Positions 5,322-52,772 are shown, numbered from the stretch's first letter. The stretch: DNA of 64,000 nt from an uncultured bacterium (GCA_963977015.1 CAXBMO010000007.1:206649-270648), one strand, 5' to 3'. The notes: generated from the letters alone by a model not told the origin. Program-made: numbers and translations.

Positions 5322-6491
5322 ATGAAGATCACTTCTCTCGATCAACTGTCCGACGAACCCACGCGTCTTGCCGCGTTTCCCGTCGCCCAAAAGAAGATTT
5401 TTCTCGGCCACGCCGGCGTCACCGCCCTCCCGCGATGCGTCGCCAATGCAGTTATCGACTACACCAATGCCTCGTCCGAAAACGACCAGGAGTTTGGTGA
5501 CGTTTTGCGGCGCGTCGGCGATACCCGCCGCGTTTGCGCCAACATGATCGGCGCCAAGCCGAACGAGATCGCTCTGCTCGGCCCGACCAGCCTCGGGCTC
5601 AGCCTCTTTGCCAACGGCCTGCCGTGGGAACCCGGCGATGAAATCATCTGCTACCTCGATGATTATCCGGCAAACGTGTATCCGTGGAAGAATCTGGAAC
5701 GCCTCGGAGTCCGGCTCGTTTACCTCAAGCCGGAGCACCCGGGCGAAATCACGCCACAATTGGTCGAGCAGGCGCTCACTCACAAGACCAAACTCGTCGC
5801 CCTCGCCAGCTGCCACTTTTTGACCGGCTATCGCATCGATATCAACGCGATCGGCCAGCTCGCCCACGATCACGGCGCCCTCTTTTCGCTCGACGCCATT
5901 CAAACCATCGGCGCCTTCCCCACCACCGTCGAGCACGTCGACTTCCTGAGCGCCGATGCCCACAAATGGATGCTCGGCCCCCTCGCCACCGGCATCGTCA
6001 TGGTGAAGGAAAAGCACTTCGACCTCCTGCGCCCCACCCTGCTTGGCGCCTGGAACATCCAGTCCCCCAACTTCATCACCCAGGACTCCATCGAATTTGA
6101 AGCCGGTGCCCGTCGATACGAACCCGGCGTCCTCAACTGCGCCGGAATCTTCGGGATGCAAGCAGCATTGCAAATGATGCAAGCCGTTGGGCTCGGGAAC
6201 ATCAGCAACCGGTTGTTGGAATTGAAGGCGACGATCGTCGCGCAGCTCAAGGAGCGCGGCTTCACCATTCACGGCAAGGAGACCGGCCCCAACGCCAGCT
6301 CCATCACCACCTTCACTCACCCGGCCAAAGATCTGGAAGCCCTCTTCAATCACCTGACCGAGGCAGGAATCACCGCCAGCTTCCGGCACGACCGCTCGGG
6401 CCAGCCCTTCCTCCGCTTCAGTCCCCACTTCTACAACACCGAAGCCGAACTGGATCGTGTTTTCCAAGCCATCGACACCCTGCCCGAATAG
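5322..6491 (+). CDS. Class V PLP-dependent aminotransferase (cysteine desulfurase/selenocysteine lyase-like)
   Basis: LDAIQTIG, SADAHKWMLGP (PLP lysine), RRYEPG, LRFSPHFYNT. Confidence 0.9.
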   Translation: MKITSLDQLSDEPTRLAAFPVAQKKIFLGHAGVTALPRCVANAVIDYTNASSENDQEFGDVLRRVGDTRRVCANMIGAKPNEIALLGPTSLGLSLFANGLPWEPGDEIICYLDDYPANVYPWKNLERLGVRLVYLKPEHPGEITPQLVEQALTHKTKLVALASCHFLTGYRIDINAIGQLAHDHGALFSLDAIQTIGAFPTTVEHVDFLSADAHKWMLGPLATGIVMVKEKHFDLLRPTLLGAWNIQSPNFITQDSIEFEAGARRYEPGVLNCAGIFGMQAALQMMQAVGLGNISNRLLELKATIVAQLKERGFTIHGKETGPNASSITTFTHPAKDLEALFNHLTEAGITASFRHDRSGQPFLRFSPHFYNTEAELDRVFQAIDTLPE

Positions 6492-6499
6492 CCGCCCTA

Positions 6500-6955
6500 T
6501 CAGGCGATCTGCTTTGCCATCACGACATTGCAACGCGCATACACGGGATGCTCGCCCTCCGCGACCGGCTCAAAGCCCAGCGAGCGATACAACGCAATCG
6601 CCGCTTCCAGGCGCGTGTTGGAGAGCAGTTCCACCCGGCTCGCTCCCACCTCCCGCAGCTTCTCCAACGCGTGGAGAGCCAGTTTCCGGCCAATGCCCTG
6701 TCCCTGAAAATCGGGATCGACCGCCATCCTGGCCAACTCATACACGCCGCGCGTTTTGTTGAACAACGCGCAGCTTCCTACCACGCGCTCATCGACCGTC
6801 GCAGTAAAAATCCAACCACCTTCGCGCCAAATTCTCGCCGGATCCGCCGCCAGCGCCCGGTCGCTTTCCTCAATCGCAAAGAATTCCGCGATCCAGCGCT
6901 CATTCAGCGCAAGAAACGCCTCCAGATGATCCGGCTGATTTTCGTGGATCTTCAT
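6500..6955 (-). CDS. GNAT N-acetyltransferase
   Basis: ELARMAVDPDFQGQGIG acetyl-CoA motif; AIALYRSLGF. Confidence 0.9.
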   Translation of the reverse strand: MKIHENQPDHLEAFLALNERWIAEFFAIEESDRALAADPARIWREGGWIFTATVDERVVGSCALFNKTRGVYELARMAVDPDFQGQGIGRKLALHALEKLREVGASRVELLSNTRLEAAIALYRSLGFEPVAEGEHPVYARCNVVMAKQIA

Positions 6956-7470: not shown

Positions 7471-7719
7471 GATGTTGGCGAAGATCGCTCCGTGACTCAT
7501 CCTGTCAATTTCCGAACTGAGGATCGTCCAATCCGAGCGACTTTCACCTCTTACCGCATTCCTCGTCGGTTCTGCCTGAAGTCCCTGATCACCGGTTCCA
7601 ATCAATGCGCTGAAGCTCTACGATTTGGCCGAATTCGCTTGGTGAATCGAGCAATTCTTCGCAGTTTGTGTCTGTAGACCTGGATTTGGTCCGTGTATTC
7701 TATGTTTTGGATTCCAATC

Positions 7720-43039: not shown

Positions 43040-44500
43040 CTAGCTTATCACCTCTTGCCAACCCTTCACGAAAAACTTTTCTTCGAGCGAGTCCCACAAT
43101 TCCCCGATCTGCTCGCGGGAGCTACTCACCCGAATTTCGCGCTGAAGCGGAACTTTGCGATTGGGACTGTAATCAGTCAGATGAACCACATAGGCTGGAA
43201 ACGGCGAATTTTCGCCCTCCTTATTGGTCTTCCACATCAAGAGCTTGCGAACCATGGTGGCCCCTTTGAGCGTTTTCGTGGCCACCTTTCGGCGAAGCAG
43301 ATCACTGGACGGCAGTTCCAATTCCCTGGCACTTTTGTCGGCCAACGAAATCTCCACCAGATCGGTCAGTTGCTTGATCGCGATGTCGTTGGGATGAATC
43401 TTCTTGTCGTCCCGAAATCGGATGAACTGCGGTGAGATCACGCTGACCAATGGCAAGCGGCGCACCGTTTCCCAAGTCTTTTTCTCCGCGTTCCAATTCA
43501 AAACCATCCGGTCAATCGTTCCTCCTCGAGTCGTTTGTGATACGAGATCGAGACAGGAAATCTCCGCGACCATCGTTGGCTCAACCATCTGGTAGGCCAC
43601 GCGATCGGAATTCACTTCGGCATACTCGCTGGAAACCACCAGGTCGCTGAGATCGGAGAGAAAATCACTTCTTTCCTGGTCCGCAAACCCGCCTCCCACC
43701 CGGCCCAAAATCTGAAATGAGCCATCGCCACGCATGATCGCCAGAAGGAGGTCGTGAATCATCCCCGATCGATCGCCGGTTCCTTCCGCAAATCCGATCA
43801 CTGCGACATCCAACGTATGGCGCGGCTTGATCTTAAAGAAACCCGCATTGTCACTTCGCACGACAACCCCTTCCCCACCCTCCTTTTCAACCCACTGCTC
43901 AAACTGCTTCCGAACCGATTTTTCACTCCCCTGAACCGTTTCGACCGGATGAATCTTGCGGCCCGTTCCAAACACCGCCTCGATCTTTTCCCACTTCTCA
44001 GCATAGGAACCTGCGACCGCCTCGTCGCCCAATTCGATAATGTCGAAGACGGCAAACTGGAGGGAATCGACTTCCTGTTGATTCCCTGGTTTTCGAGCCA
44101 CCTTCACGACATCGTGAACTCGAGGGCGCTGATCGTCACTACGATTGACATAAAGCTCCCCGGCAATCATCGCGCTCTCGATCCCGGCGTTCTGTAGAAG
44201 GTTGGTGGCCTCTTCCAGGAAGGGCGCTCCATGGCGAATGGTGCCACCGGGATTTAAGGCGATCGCATCTCCGTCCTTCAGAATCACCACGGAAAACTCC
44301 CCATCGATTTTGCGGCTGATATGATAGTGATTCGCGATGACATGCTTGGAAATGCCTGTCTTATCCAGCGCCATCATCTGAGCACCGATCTGCCGGCGGA
44401 ATGCCTGAACCCGAGTCAGCATTGCCGATTGATGGAGTGCCGTTCCCGGAGCGACGCCATACTTGCCGAACTTTATATTGAGACGAGCCTGCTCAAACAT
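43040..44500 (-). CDS. ATP-dependent DNA ligase-like protein (adenylation + OB fold) with a WGR-like C-terminus
   Basis: Motif I RKIDGE, III IAGELY, IIIa FAVFDI, IV EGVVVR, V FKIKP; OB-fold motifs LDVAVIG, GRVGGGF, PQFIRFRDDK. Confidence 0.85.
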   Translation of the reverse strand: MFEQARLNIKFGKYGVAPGTALHQSAMLTRVQAFRRQIGAQMMALDKTGISKHVIANHYHISRKIDGEFSVVILKDGDAIALNPGGTIRHGAPFLEEATNLLQNAGIESAMIAGELYVNRSDDQRPRVHDVVKVARKPGNQQEVDSLQFAVFDIIELGDEAVAGSYAEKWEKIEAVFGTGRKIHPVETVQGSEKSVRKQFEQWVEKEGGEGVVVRSDNAGFFKIKPRHTLDVAVIGFAEGTGDRSGMIHDLLLAIMRGDGSFQILGRVGGGFADQERSDFLSDLSDLVVSSEYAEVNSDRVAYQMVEPTMVAEISCLDLVSQTTRGGTIDRMVLNWNAEKKTWETVRRLPLVSVISPQFIRFRDDKKIHPNDIAIKQLTDLVEISLADKSARELELPSSDLLRRKVATKTLKGATMVRKLLMWKTNKEGENSPFPAYVVHLTDYSPNRKVPLQREIRVSSSREQIGELWDSLEEKFFVKGWQEVIS

Positions 44501-44502
44501 CT

Positions 44503-45369
44503 CTATTTCCCTCCCTTCACATTCTTCTTCGCCGACTTCTTCTTGGAAGTCTTCTTTGTCGTCTTCTTCGCCAGAGCCTTTTTCTTGGCAGCCGCCGTCT
44601 TCTTGCTTGCAACCTTCTCGACCGGTTCAGCTTTAGCTTCTTCCTCTTTTGGCTCGCCTTTCTCAGCAGGTTCAGGCCGCTTCAGTTCCATATTCGTCAG
44701 GTGAAGAATCAGCGCATATTTCTTACCATCCGTTCGTCCCTCGAGAAACCCGAAGTATTCCACCCCACCCCGGCGAAACAAGAGTTTGTCAACGCCCTTG
44801 GCCCCTCCCCCAACCCGCATCAGGCATTCCTCGTCTTCCAACTCTTTGGCCATGTCATAGAGGAAGTCATAGGTCAGACCGTTAACGTGGATGATCTGCA
44901 CCTTTGATCCAAAAATGAATTGGTTATAGATCTGCGATTTCTTGAACTTTTTGCCGGTCCATTTGATCGGCGTTTCTGTCGCGACATTGGGCTCAACAAC
45001 CGTTTTCTCCCTGCGTCCTTTGACATTCCCCTCCGGATCATAGACAACCTCCTCAAGGGTTACCTTATGTACAATGTTGGAATCGGGATCGATATACACA
45101 CGAGAGGTATCTTCCAGAAACTGTCCGAACATCTCAAGATCCACTTCCGGATCGCCATCCTGAAAGGCTTGCGCGATTTCTTCCGGATCATCTCCATACT
45201 TCTGCTCGAGCGCTCCCAGATCATGAGGGACGGTTGATCGCAGAATCTTGAACGAACCGGCTTGCGCCCCGGCGTCATCAACCCAGCGCACGTGAAAAGA
45301 GGTTGCCACGCTCTCCGCCGCAACCAATGCGTCCCGTCCTTTGCTGTCTGATAGATTGATTTCCGCCAT
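44503..45369 (-). CDS. Hypothetical protein, divergent Ku-like, with a Lys/Ala-rich basic tail
   Basis: C-terminal half follows the Ku beta-barrel pattern; tail KKTAAAKKKALAKKTTKKTSKKKSAKK; 2 nt from the ligase start. Confidence 0.6.
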   Translation of the reverse strand: MAEINLSDSKGRDALVAAESVATSFHVRWVDDAGAQAGSFKILRSTVPHDLGALEQKYGDDPEEIAQAFQDGDPEVDLEMFGQFLEDTSRVYIDPDSNIVHKVTLEEVVYDPEGNVKGRREKTVVEPNVATETPIKWTGKKFKKSQIYNQFIFGSKVQIIHVNGLTYDFLYDMAKELEDEECLMRVGGGAKGVDKLLFRRGGVEYFGFLEGRTDGKKYALILHLTNMELKRPEPAEKGEPKEEEAKAEPVEKVASKKTAAAKKKALAKKTTKKTSKKKSAKKNVKGGK

Positions 45370-45375
45370 TTCTCG

Positions 45376-45999
45376 TTAGAATCCAAAATCCATGTCTTCT
45401 CCGTCAGCCTCATCACCCTCTTCGTCTTCTGAAATCAGCCCACGAGTTTCCTCCTGCCCGACAAAATGAATTTCGGCCTTTTTTCCGACCGTCATCCATA
45501 CCACTTCATCAGCGCCCATCAGCATGAATCCGGAATCTGGATCCAATCCCCCGCGATAGCTGAACGGAAACTTGTAAATAACACCGCTTTTCAGTTCCCC
45601 CAGTAGTTCCGAAGGAAATTCGTTTTCCCCAGCGAGGCTCAACTCATAGATCAGACGAATGTTGTGCGATAGATACTCTTCAAACGATGCTTTTTCGGAG
45701 AGTTGCGTTGAGAGCTTAAACGTGGAGGAAACTGGCGTAATTTCTTCCCCGTCCAAATCTACAGCTCTGAGCGCTCCTTTGTCTCTCCATTCTCCATCGG
45801 GCGATAGATAGGCCAGGGCGGTTCCTCCCATGGGAATCAACGTCTTGCCATCACCGGCAAGGCTGCCTAACTCGCAAGGCCGGCCGGATTCGTCCACAGC
45901 CTCAACTTTGACCGTTCCATAGAGCTTGGTTCGGTCTACTTTTGACACCGAACAGGAAAACTCTTTGGATCCAAATTGAAACTGCAATGCCTGGGCCAT
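45376..45999 (-). CDS. Hypothetical protein, divergent Ku-like, with an acidic tail
   Basis: Ku-like pattern FQFGS..., ALAYLSPDGEW, IRLIYEL, ELLGEL...FSYRGG; tail EDEEGDEADGEDMDFGF; 6 nt from the next gene. Confidence 0.6.
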   Translation of the reverse strand: MAQALQFQFGSKEFSCSVSKVDRTKLYGTVKVEAVDESGRPCELGSLAGDGKTLIPMGGTALAYLSPDGEWRDKGALRAVDLDGEEITPVSSTFKLSTQLSEKASFEEYLSHNIRLIYELSLAGENEFPSELLGELKSGVIYKFPFSYRGGLDPDSGFMLMGADEVVWMTVGKKAEIHFVGQEETRGLISEDEEGDEADGEDMDFGF

Positions 46000-48948: not shown

Positions 48949-49731
48949 TCAGGCTCGCAGGCTCACAATTCTCCCTTTGTCGCAAATGCCATCTTCAGGC
49001 TCAAAGGTCTCGGTTTCCCAATCCCGGCTACCAACGACGCGACCCGCAGTCGGTCGACTGAACCCCAACCTGGTGGCGGCGAGATGTCGCGCGTAGTTGA
49101 CGGGGCGTGGCGCATTGATCGGGACGATACAATGAAACAGTGATGGGACTGCGGTTCCCCGAAAATCCAGATTCCACCCCTTTTTCTGTCCACTTTCTGC
49201 AAAGACGCGGTCATCAGGAGTTTCTCCGCGATTCCAACTTTCCCGCAAGAAACTCGCATAGGCCTCCCGCGTTTCGTCCGTGGGGTGGAAAGCCTCTACG
49301 TGGTAGGTGACTTCCAACGACAAGCGATCCATCTTTCCGAATGAGATTCGGGAATCCCAGCATTGCTGCGCATACGTCGTGATGGGTTCGCCGTTGCCAA
49401 AACTCCAAAAATCAACCTCCGGAACCTCAATTCTCGTTGTGGCCGCCTGCTCCTCCACAAAAAGCCCGGGATCAAACTCCAAGACGGATTCTTCGAAACC
49501 GGCCCAATCATTGACCTGTGGAAAATTCCCACGGAGCAACAACCGTGCCTCCGGACCATCGACGATCAAGTCTTCATCGGGTTCGTCATCTTCCAGAATC
49601 AAACTCGCCTCGATTTCGAAATCCTGGGAGTCCGGGCGGGGATCCAGATGGTTAAGAAAATAGAGGATTTCTCCGGGTCCAAACTCTTTCCATCGCCGGT
49701 CTTGATGTTGGAGAATTGCTTGCGTTTTCAT
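48949..49731 (-). CDS. Hypothetical acidic protein
   Basis: 260-aa ORF filling the gap between the porin and gyrA; no motif recognised. Confidence 0.55.
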   Translation of the reverse strand: MKTQAILQHQDRRWKEFGPGEILYFLNHLDPRPDSQDFEIEASLILEDDEPDEDLIVDGPEARLLLRGNFPQVNDWAGFEESVLEFDPGLFVEEQAATTRIEVPEVDFWSFGNGEPITTYAQQCWDSRISFGKMDRLSLEVTYHVEAFHPTDETREAYASFLRESWNRGETPDDRVFAESGQKKGWNLDFRGTAVPSLFHCIVPINAPRPVNYARHLAATRLGFSRPTAGRVVGSRDWETETFEPEDGICDKGRIVSLRA

Positions 49732-50078: not shown

Positions 50079-52772
50079 ATGGCTGAAGATTCCACGCCTC
50101 AAGACCCTAATTTCGACAATATCCTGCCCATCAACGTGGCGGACGAGATGAAAAACTCGTTTCTGGACTACTCGATGTCGGTCATCATTTCCCGAGCGCT
50201 GCCCGATGCTCGAGACGGACTCAAACCGAGCCAGAGGCGCCTGCTTTACGCGATGTACAACGATTTGAACTTGCTCCCGAGCCGCAAGTTTTTGAAGTGC
50301 GCCCGTATTGTTGGTGACACGATGGGTAAATATCACCCTCACGGTGACCAGGCCATCTACCCGACCTTGGTGAACATGGCGCAACCATGGTCGATGCGGG
50401 ATCCTCTCGTTCATGGTCAGGGCAACTTCGGCTCCCCTGAGGGAGACAACGCGGCCGCGATGCGATACACCGAGGCCAAGCTCACCCATTTGGGGGCGGC
50501 GCTGATGCTCGACCTCGACAAGGACACCGTCGACAAGGTCAAAAACTACGATGAGTCGAACGAAGAACCCGTCGTTCTGCCCGCTGCGTTTCCAAACCTT
50601 TTGGTCAATGGCGGCACCGGAATCGCCGTCGGAATGGCGACCAACATCCCGCCTCACAACCTCGGCGAGGTGATTGACGGGATTTGCGCGACGATCGACA
50701 ACCCGAAGATCACCAACGAGGAGCTGCAAAAGATCATCAAGGGGCCGGACTTCCCGACGGGCTGTACCATTTTGGGCTCGCGGGGGATCAAGAGCTACTT
50801 CGAAACGGGCCGCGGCCAGATCAAGGTGCGGGGAACGGCTGAGATCGCCGAAAAAGGCAATCACGAGCAAATCATCATCACGCAAGTGCCGTTCTACGTT
50901 CGCCGCGACAAGCTCCACGAGCGGATCGCCGAATTGACCCGGGAAAAGGTTCTCCCTGAAATTAGCGCAATTCGCGATGAGTCCGACGAGAACACGCGAC
51001 TGGTGATCGACCTCAAGCGCGACGCCCAACCGCAGGTGGTGCTGAACAACATTTACAAGCACACCAGCCTAGAAACGAGTTTCAGCGCGAACATGCTCGC
51101 GATCGACAACCGTCGCCCCAAGCTGCTTTCCGTTCGCGACGCGATCAACTGCTATATCGAACACCGTCGCGACGTTATCCTGCGCCGGACCCGCTACTTG
51201 CTGAAGCAGGCTGAGGATAAGGCCGAACGGCTCGAAGCTTTTCTGCTGGCTCTGGGTCACATCGACGACTTCATCAAGATGATTCGCGATTCGAAGAGTC
51301 GTGATGAAGCTCGCGAACGCATCAAAGCCTACGATTTCGCCCCGGAAGCTGCTGAAGCGCTCGGCGTCCTGATTCGGGACCAGCCCAGCTTGAAGATCAA
51401 AGAAGGACGCTACGTCTTCACGGATCGGCAGGTAAACGCCATTCTCGATCTCCGTCTCTATCAATTGACGGCGCTCGAGCGGGATAAGACGAAGAACGAC
51501 TACAATGAAGTAATCGCAGAGATTAAGGATTACCTCGACATTCTCGGAAGCGAGGAGCGTGTTCTGACGATCATCAAAGACGAGTTGATCGAGATCAAGG
51601 ACAAGCACGCCACACCGCGTCGCACCGGCTTTGCCGCTGACGAAGGGGACATGAACCTGGAAGACCTGATTGCCAACGAAGGCGCAATCGTAACGGTTTC
51701 CCATAAAGGTTACATCAAACGGACGCCGGCCGAGGAATACCGCGTTCAAAACCGTGGCGGCAAGGGATTGAAGGGTATGGAAACCCGGGATGCGATGAGC
51801 GAGGAGGACGAAGACGATTTCGTCGAGCAACTGTTTGCCGCGACAACGCACGATTACCTGCTGTTCTTCACGAACACCGGGCGCGTCTTCCTGGAGCGTG
51901 TTTTTTCCATTCCGGAAGGCTCTCGAACCGCCAAGGGGCGTTCGGTCAAAAACCTCCTGAACTTCCGACCGGAAGAGAAGATTGCTTCCGTTCTCCGAAT
52001 TGAAGGTGACCCCGATGGCGATCGCGCCAAGACTTTCAGCCCGGGATATCACGTCATTTTCGCGACGAAGACCGGAATCATCAAGAAGACGAATCTGAGC
52101 GACTTCAAGAACATCCGGAAAGACGGAATCATCGCGATCAACATTGATGAAGGGAACGAACTGATCGGCTGCAAACTCACGAGCGGAGAAGACGAAATCG
52201 TTCTCGTCACCAATCAGGGAATGAGCTTGCGCTGCAGCGAGAAGGACTTCCGTGATCAAGGCCGCGCGACCCGAGGAGTCACCGGAATTCGTCCCGGTAA
52301 GGAAGGCGACTTTGTTGTTGGCATCGCGATTGTTGATCCCGATGCCACGTTGCTGGTGGCTTCAATGAACGGTATCGGCAAACGCACTCCGTTTGAAGAC
52401 TACCGTCTCCAGAACCGCGGTGGAAAAGGGATCATCACCATGAAGGTTACCGATAAAACCGGCCTGGTGGTCAGTGCGGTAGCGGTCCATGAGACTGACG
52501 AGTTGATGTTGATGACGAGCACCGGGCAGAGCGTCCGAATTCGCGTCACCGATGTCCGGCAAGCCGGAAGAAACACCCAGGGCGTAAAGCTCATGACTTT
52601 GGCTGAAGGTGAAACCATTCAGGATATCGCCAGAGTGGTTGCCGACCCTGACCAAACTCTCGAAGAGATGGCATCCGACGATGATCCCGTCGCAGTCGTG
52701 GATCCCGAGACCGCAGATCCAGAAACGACTCCGGAAAACCCGGAAACTCCGCCAGCAGAACCCGAGGCGTAA
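50079..52772 (+). CDS. gyrA: DNA gyrase subunit A
   Basis: [26 protein letters not shown] (catalytic Tyr), GyrA-box QNRGGKG, beta-pinwheel repeats, acidic tail. Confidence 0.97.

Follow-up and report, generated by a model that had tools for sequence, protein, structure and literature searches.

Do three adjacent genes in the genome of an uncultured bacterium encode an end-joining system that sequence searches fail to recognise? The question is raised by a 64,000-nucleotide stretch of DNA (GCA_963977015.1 CAXBMO010000007.1:206649-270648; hereafter the window, meaning the whole stretch that was analysed), in which a first-pass annotation had read two different Ku-like proteins, here called A and B, followed by an ATP-dependent DNA ligase. 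Computation yields a conserved cassette in which the ligase active site is intact, a Ku-type fold for A and B, and a heterodimer as the predicted assembly of the two. From these we infer, with a probability of about 0.6, that A and B are the two halves of a heterodimeric Ku-like protein, divergent in sequence, that binds DNA ends and is served by a ligase of its own. The cassette would thus be a minimal Ku-plus-ligase module, similar to non-homologous end joining (NHEJ), that binds and joins DNA ends.

A conserved cassette of A, B and a ligase

The three open reading frames (ORFs) are co-oriented on the minus strand in the order A (45376..45999, 207 aa), B (44503..45369, 288 aa) and ligase (43040..44500, 486 aa), with gaps of 6 nt between A and B and of 2 nt between B and the ligase. 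The coordinates and spacings on which the first-pass annotation was built are thus confirmed: A-B-ligase is a real gene set, made of two unannotated proteins and a ligase. A has no match at E<=1 in Pfam, NCBIfam, PADLOC or PHROGs, and at the same threshold the four hidden Markov model (HMM) libraries are empty for B save a chance-level PHROG row (E 0.37) on its low-complexity tail; the two proteins are indeed too divergent for routine annotation, as had been claimed. A word-indexed protein search at E<=0.001 found 203 homologues of A and 1933 of B, all of them unnamed or labelled 'hypothetical'. Grouped at 50% identity, the B family amounts by exhaustive profile search to at least 590 clusters, of which 419 have E<=1e-10 and 163 E<=1e-30, and the best 150 matches listed for the B profile against 1.84 billion representatives were all close family.

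Scanning a single genome for each species recovered at least 560 loci with B relatives, the best 80 of which, a set biased towards the query, were analysed. Going by their record titles, they come from six phyla, with 40 loci from Planctomycetota, 17 from Verrucomicrobiota, 11 from Gammaproteobacteria/Pseudomonadota, 6 from Myxococcota/'Deltaproteobacteria', 5 from Cyanobacteria and 1 from Actinomycetes. The gene order is always A-B-ligase, a ligase lying downstream of B in 75/80 loci and A upstream of it in 66/80 (tblastn) or 65/80 (HMM). A is missing from 15 loci, of which 6 are unjudgeable, with less than 700 nt upstream of B, and this leaves A non-adjacent in 9 of 74; genome-wide searches in five of these nine genomes found a stand-alone A gene elsewhere in four and no A in the fifth. 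ORF clustering of the 80 loci gave no further real gene family in more than 8 of them, the remaining recurrent clusters being taken, from their position and low-complexity translation, for ORFs that run out of frame or antisense to the trio genes. The pairwise distances of A, B and ligase correlate (r 0.83-0.89, 61 loci; Mantel p<=0.001), shared species history contributing to the value. Finally, of 201 genomes sampled evenly over the phylum, A was found in 4; B was found in these 4 and in no others, next to A each time. Whether the trio recurs across genomes, which the first-pass annotation had left to be checked, thus receives a positive answer, with A, B and the ligase as the only genes kept in the 80 loci.

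Within the taxonomic family to which the window genome belongs, B is present in 14/61 genomes and 10/30 genera. One of these 14 genomes carries B in three pieces with internal TGA and TAA stops (G216:C27:43467-44093), apparently a decaying pseudogene. The patchy distribution and this broken copy indicate that the cassette is accessory, gained and lost. Copies from other phyla are as similar as those from the same phylum (the cyanobacterial ones have about 55% identity), a pattern suggestive of horizontal transfer.

Predicted fold of A and B and their pairing

AlphaFold2 models of A and B were built from 42-row alignments. The mean predicted local distance difference test (pLDDT) score is 77.2 for A and 62.2 for B, the core of B being near 80, and the predicted template modelling scores (pTM) are 0.63 and 0.45. 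A Foldseek comparison with the PDB puts Bacillus subtilis Ku first for A (9vnq_A, E 6.1e-6, template modelling (TM) scores 0.43/0.40; 27 matches at E<=0.001) and Mycobacterium tuberculosis Ku first for B (9i91_A, E 2.5e-5, TM 0.38/0.47; 47 matches at E<=0.001), and the matches listed for the two proteins are Ku chains exclusively. VIA, a structural aligner independent of Foldseek that was run against 48,161 representative chains, brings A closest to M. tuberculosis Ku (9i91_A, Z 11.3, root-mean-square deviation 2.5, 103 aligned residues), then to 9vnq_A (Z 10.9, 153 aligned) and Ku80 (Z 9.7); for B, four Ku chains lead with Z 13.2, 13.1, 13.0 and 12.8, the first value being that of M. tuberculosis Ku. 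The alignments to B. subtilis Ku span 153 residues of A and 147 of B and therefore exceed the barrel alone. As far as the models go, the barrel of A and B is of the Ku/SPOC type, with Ku as its best match and not its sole one. The proposal that both proteins are Ku-like holds at the level of the fold, since a Ku/SPOC beta-barrel, the seven-stranded core type of Ku, is seen in both models and both methods rank Ku first.

Long conserved insertions interrupt this barrel, at residues ~28-100 of A, whose core covers residues ~1-183, and at ~21-105 and 122-135 of B, whose core covers residues ~1-232; they fall within the predicted interface and are modelled with low confidence. The exact protein A is present in the ESM Atlas as a single-sequence model that is unusable (pLDDT 0.35) and has no meaningful neighbours, which may be the reason why structure mining left the family unflagged.

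Complex prediction was carried out on residues 1-185 of A with residues 1-235 of B, in three runs with three controls and for the heterodimer pairing only. It gave an interaction prediction score from aligned errors (ipSAE) of 0.72 (runs 0.70, 0.76 and 0.72) against 0.00 for the best control. The 0.72 mark is reached by 58/80 solved complexes and 2/110 mismatched pairs, rates that are approximate here because custom alignments were used, and a passing score supports A-B binding without showing it. Each run has 273-297 contacts with at least 84% agreement and a partner pLDDT of at least 65. The lowest-error contacts join residues 112-114 of A to residues 152-154 of B, equivalent strands that each come after a short helix in their own model, and the interface takes in the long insertions (A 21-87; B 21-44 and 87-114). 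Such pairing of equivalent strands, with insertions at the interface, is what would be expected of a pseudo-two-fold Ku-like dimer, and A and B are thus predicted to pair as an extensive pseudo-symmetric heterodimer. The heterodimeric Ku-like pair that had been proposed from the sequence therefore gains support from a controlled prediction.

The family alignments have 13 invariant columns for A (42 sequences) and 37 for B, with mean pairwise identities of 0.46 and 0.55. The core of B ends near residue 232 and its conserved basic residues are R12, R28, R90, R120, K140, K144, K156, K191, R200, R212 and K230. Comparison of the A and B families by hhalign aligns 119 columns, placing FSYRGG of A over FRRGG of B (P 0.0089, probability 4.5%). 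The first-pass annotation had described an RGG common to both proteins, and this is partly true: the weak alignment superposes the two loops, and R149, G150 and G151 of A are invariant or nearly so, but in B only R200 is nearly invariant.

Outside the cores, A and B end in very different tails. That of A is acidic (45379..45450, minus strand, residues 184-207; 11 D/E versus 1 K/R) and disordered in the model (pLDDT <50), with a conserved D-F-G tip in which D204 is nearly invariant and F205 invariant among the 42 sequences. That of B is lysine-rich (44506..44673, minus strand, residues 233-288; pI 10.1), a character found in some family members only. Three long B forms (P0241-P0243, 518-533 aa) carry C-terminal SAM domains (PF00536, PF07647). 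At a Granulosicoccaceae locus (L042), where B occupies positions 6001-6690 and the ligase begins at 7632, the B-ligase gap reaches ~0.9 kb, probably because one of these SAM-bearing forms (P0242) is encoded there. SAM domains oligomerise, and it is tempting to speculate that they would suit the synapsis of ends.

The ligase and its genomic setting

Pfam recognises two domains in the ligase, both on the minus strand: DNA_ligase_A_M (PF01068, E 4.2e-8), the nucleotidyltransferase domain, at residues 56-219 (43844..44335), and DNA_ligase_A_C (PF04679, E 1.8e-10), the OB domain, at residues 244-366 (43403..43771). The motifs start at residues 63 (RKIDGE, with the catalytic K64 at 44309-44311), 114 (GEL), 151 (VFDI), 210 (EGVV), 223 (KIKP) and 361 (RFRDDK, motif VI, within the OB domain). 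Motifs I, III, IIIa, IV, V and VI of the ATP-dependent ligase superfamily, the catalytic lysine and the OB domain are consequently all present; every nucleotidyltransferase motif noticed in the first reading lies where it had been placed, with motif VI besides. Thirty cassette ligases align over their full length, with 48-74% identity to that of the window. All of them have motif VI, and S62, R63, K64, D66, G67 and E68 are invariant, which gives the pattern S-R-K-x-D-G-E.

These enzymes form a distinct clade accompanying A and B. The best NCBIfam match of the window ligase is TIGR02779, the LigD/NHEJ ligase domain, with 67.9 bits for a cut-off of 227.75; TIGR02776 scores 54.6 bits for a cut-off of 373.2, and none of the nine NCBIfam families listed reaches its cut-off. 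A profile of the ligase family run against structures matched archaeal and eukaryotic ligases best (E 7e-16), M. tuberculosis LigD (1vs0) being found at E 0.006. The polymerase (POL) and phosphoesterase (PE) domains were not found in the 486-aa protein by Pfam or NCBIfam. The ligase had been called minimal, a description that has to be abandoned: it has a basic N-terminal extension of 55 aa and a conserved C-terminal domain of ~90-120 aa that is present in 30/30 aligned ligases. In the window, this basic domain covers residues 395-486 (43043..43318, minus strand, pI 9.6) and it ends in K-G-W. Its Atlas model matches a WGR cluster with TM 0.52/0.66 over 76 residues. Pfam gave no WGR (PF05406) match in the 30 ligases at E<=10 and none in the six frames of the window genome, and hhalign against 15 WGR domains returned a probability of 0.3%. 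A WGR-like C-terminal domain is thus a weak lead, taken from a model.

The genome from which the window comes is 95.26% complete. A six-frame search with PF02735 found no Ku in it (Ku was detected in a B. subtilis control genome), and the LigD polymerase (TIGR02778) and phosphoesterase (TIGR02777) domains were not found there either. Canonical Ku is present in 14/201 genomes of the phylum sample, none of the 4 carriers being among them, in 5/61 genomes of the family sample, one of which (G220) is a carrier, and in 1/10 carriers from other phyla. The sole other ATP-dependent ligase of the window genome (C2:94122-97712, L001) is 825 aa long within this locus, in an open frame of 912 aa. By eye, its N-terminal half looks like a metallo-beta-lactamase-type nuclease, placed before a ligase with an N-terminal DNA-binding domain.

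Around the cassette, 81 nt separate A from the end of a ceramidase-like gene on its upstream side, and a glutamine amidotransferase gene follows 7 nt after the ligase; the latter has a Pfam GATase match, 'hisH' being a label only. The wider flanks are housekeeping in nature and include a phosphate porin, a PSCyt2/PSD1 protein and an M48 peptidase. An 897-aa ORF (50079-52772) reads by eye as gyrA. Between it and the porin gene lies a 260-aa ORF (48949-49731, minus strand) without a Pfam family at E<=0.001. A promoter and terminator scan was uninformative, with 1 promoter-like site, overlapping the start codon of A, for 2.7 expected.

Interpretation and comparison with known systems

How could such a cassette work? 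A and B may be two distantly related Ku-fold paralogues that come together as a heterodimer with pseudo-symmetry, corresponding in bacteria to Ku70/Ku80. If they behave as the known Ku and LigD proteins do, the A-B ring would close around DNA and thread onto double-strand ends, and the co-transcribed ATP-dependent ligase would be a dedicated sealer, recruited to A-B to seal these ends; the outcome in vivo would be the joining of double-strand breaks. Passages of two papers describe the recruitment of LigD by the C-terminus of Ku (PMC4889933, PMC9638933); here, we suggest that the docking site on the ligase is its basic C-terminal domain and that the part of A that docks there is the acidic tail with the D-F-G tip. 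We further suggest that B gains non-specific affinity for DNA from its lysine-rich tail, by analogy with Mycobacterium smegmatis Ku, whose lysine-rich tail modulates DNA binding according to passages of PMC3553676. The cassette holds neither a polymerase nor a nuclease, so that ends other than clean or compatible ones would need the help of host enzymes to be joined. One may go further and see in the cassette a second Ku lineage, sequence-unrecognisable and heterodimeric, whose own ligase clade bears a WGR-like break-sensing domain, the whole making up a complete alternative end-joining pathway; we would give this fuller version an even chance.

Several results weigh against a Ku-like end-joining module. 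At the sequence level, the link to canonical Ku is at chance: A and B have no match to Pfam Ku (PF02735) at E<=1, nor to NCBIfam, comparison by hhalign with 14 aligned canonical Ku proteins of the same phylum gave probabilities of 0.1% for A and 0.3% for B, and profile searches of PDB sequences did not lead to Ku, with best E values of 0.06 and 0.65. The Ku core pattern that the first-pass annotation had seen by eye in both proteins is accordingly not supported, and paralogy of A and B is only weakly supported by their sequences. The insertions that would have to form the bridge and pillars have low pLDDT (53-76 at residues 21-80 of A; below 50 at residues 21-47 and 75-91 of B), and the high A+B score can owe to the likeness of the predicted folds to solved Ku dimers. 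In 5/80 loci no ligase lies within 4.5-6 kb, and no end-processing enzyme (polymerase, nuclease) is found in the cassette or conserved nearby in the 80 loci. Nor do carriers complement canonical Ku: it is present in 2/27 carriers in total, the background rate (14/201, 5/61), with no sign of depletion. Carriers thus neither exclude nor require canonical Ku, and the idea that the trio excludes it finds no signal. Two further points against the module, the barrel shared with SPOC domains and the acidity of the cores, also bear on a specific alternative.

SPOC domains and INTS13/14 carry the same beta-barrel and match both models with Z 7-11, 2-3 Z units below Ku, and the cores of A and B are net acidic (pI 4.75 and 5.0). 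Together with the poor modelling of the putative ring arms, this could be read to mean that A and B are a SPOC-like protein-protein adaptor or regulator which tethers the ligase and does not encircle DNA, in the manner of INTS13-INTS14. We find this decidedly improbable: Ku outranks SPOC for both proteins by two methods, the Ku alignments of 153 and 147 residues go beyond the barrel, the long conserved insertions are absent from the 120-170-aa SPOC domains, and B has many conserved basic residues. A Ku-fold pair with a ligase might also serve single-strand damage (nicks, gaps and abasic sites) in place of double-strand ends, as a back-up for excision or base excision repair in which A-B would act as a clamp on lesions or nicks or as an apurinic/apyrimidinic (AP) or deoxyribose phosphate (dRP) lyase. 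The absence of a polymerase and a nuclease from the cassette is compatible with such a role, and the second ATP-dependent ligase of the genome makes specialisation plausible. In PARP enzymes the WGR domain senses breaks, and the C-terminal domain of the ligase is weakly WGR-like in structure. Moreover, bacterial Ku proteins process abasic sites, as passages of PMC4245934 report. However, the WGR lead was negative in both sequence tests, and the extensive interlocked dimer of the model would suit threading onto ends better than binding to nicks. To our knowledge, every characterised system in which a Ku fold goes with a ligase performs end joining, and we hold a role in single-strand damage to be unlikely.

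It could also be argued that the heterodimer is misleading, and that B or A acts as a homodimer like an ordinary bacterial Ku, with the other protein as an accessory factor. A is non-adjacent to B in 9/74 loci and was not found in one of five such genomes, B is more conserved than A, and the complex prediction covered the A+B pairing alone. Against this, A is encoded elsewhere in four of the five unlinked cases, A and B occur in the same 4/201 genomes, and both have the Ku fold, with a predicted interface that joins their equivalent strands; the likelihood of a homodimer appears to us very small. Smaller still is that of a function in conflict or mobile-DNA biology, in which the cassette would reseal the chromosome after nuclease attack, as a defence, or handle the ends of linear elements, in place of general repair. 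Patchy presence (4/201 genomes; 14/61 genomes and 10/30 genera), the decayed G216 copy and identities suggestive of horizontal transfer would fit it, but canonical Ku/LigD is just as much a patchy system (14/201), none of the three proteins has a PADLOC match at E<=1, no defence or mobile-element neighbours are conserved and the window flanks are housekeeping, and searches of IMG/VR viral contigs, PLSDB plasmids and GenBank phages gave no B relatives. We thus retain, as the most probable reading, a Ku-like heterodimer that binds ends and is accompanied by a dedicated ligase.

No description of the A-B-ligase trio was found in open full texts, subscription journals and supplementary files lying outside this scope, and the passages of a 2025 survey of Ku evolution (PMC11936186) treat canonical Ku only. 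End joining by Ku and a ligase is known; what would be new is a heterodimeric Ku-like pair missed by sequence searches, associated with a distinct ligase clade. Both protein families fall outside the Ku model, B alone counting no fewer than 590 clusters at 50% identity, with no fewer than 560 species records. If the proposal of a second Ku lineage is true, several hundred species or more, belonging to Verrucomicrobiota, Planctomycetota, Cyanobacteria, Myxococcota, Gammaproteobacteria and Actinomycetes, possess the pathway, and surveys based on Pfam Ku underestimate the spread of bacterial NHEJ. Confirmation would widen the range of NHEJ to phyla usually scored negative, including large-genome, slow-growing environmental bacteria, and would provide a compact three-gene end-joining kit for genome engineering. 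The size of A-B-ligase is small enough for reconstitution and cryo-electron microscopy.

How does the cassette compare with known systems? The barrel is shared with SPOC domains and with INTS13-INTS14 of Integrator, the latter also being a heterodimer of Ku-like proteins; these are eukaryotic, however, have no linkage to a ligase, do not form a DNA-encircling ring and score below Ku. Several Ku-type genes in one genome, with possible hetero-oligomers, are a feature that the cassette has in common with two groups of bacteria. Sinorhizobium has multiple canonical Ku paralogues. The same is described for Streptomyces in passages of PMC5124664. Unlike A and B, all of these paralogues are ordinary Pfam Ku proteins. 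The archaeal NHEJ system of Methanocella paludicola is reportedly made of separate Ku, ligase, polymerase and phosphoesterase genes, with a Ku that is canonical and homodimeric. If so, it resembles the cassette in having a stand-alone ligase beside the Ku gene, with no LigD fusion, and differs from it by the polymerase and phosphoesterase, genes that are not conserved around the cassette and were not found in the window genome.

Typical bacterial end joining employs a Ku homodimer and LigD, and its distribution has been mapped by means of a Ku sequence model. As in M. tuberculosis and B. subtilis, a Ku-fold candidate end binder adjoins an ATP-dependent ligase in the cassette and the spread is patchy; among NCBIfam families, the LigD ligase domain is the one that the ligase matches best, and a basic lysine-rich tail recalls mycobacterial Ku, albeit on one subunit (B). 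The differences are equally clear: there are two distinct subunits here, which neither Pfam Ku nor profile-profile comparison recognises, and the ligase lacks POL and PE, stays far under the LigD cut-offs and has a different conserved C-terminal domain. Ku70/Ku80 and DNA ligase IV offer another parallel: there, a heterodimer of diverged Ku-fold paralogues, as predicted here, works with a dedicated ATP-dependent ligase, and chains of Ku80 and Ku70 rank high among the structures that A and B match. The cassette does without the vWA, SAP and Ku80 C-terminal domains and without XRCC4/XLF-type partners, its subunits being one-third the size, and the duplication that gave A and B was presumably independent of that which gave Ku70 and Ku80. 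If confirmed, A and B would constitute a bacterial heterodimeric Ku to set beside Ku70/Ku80.

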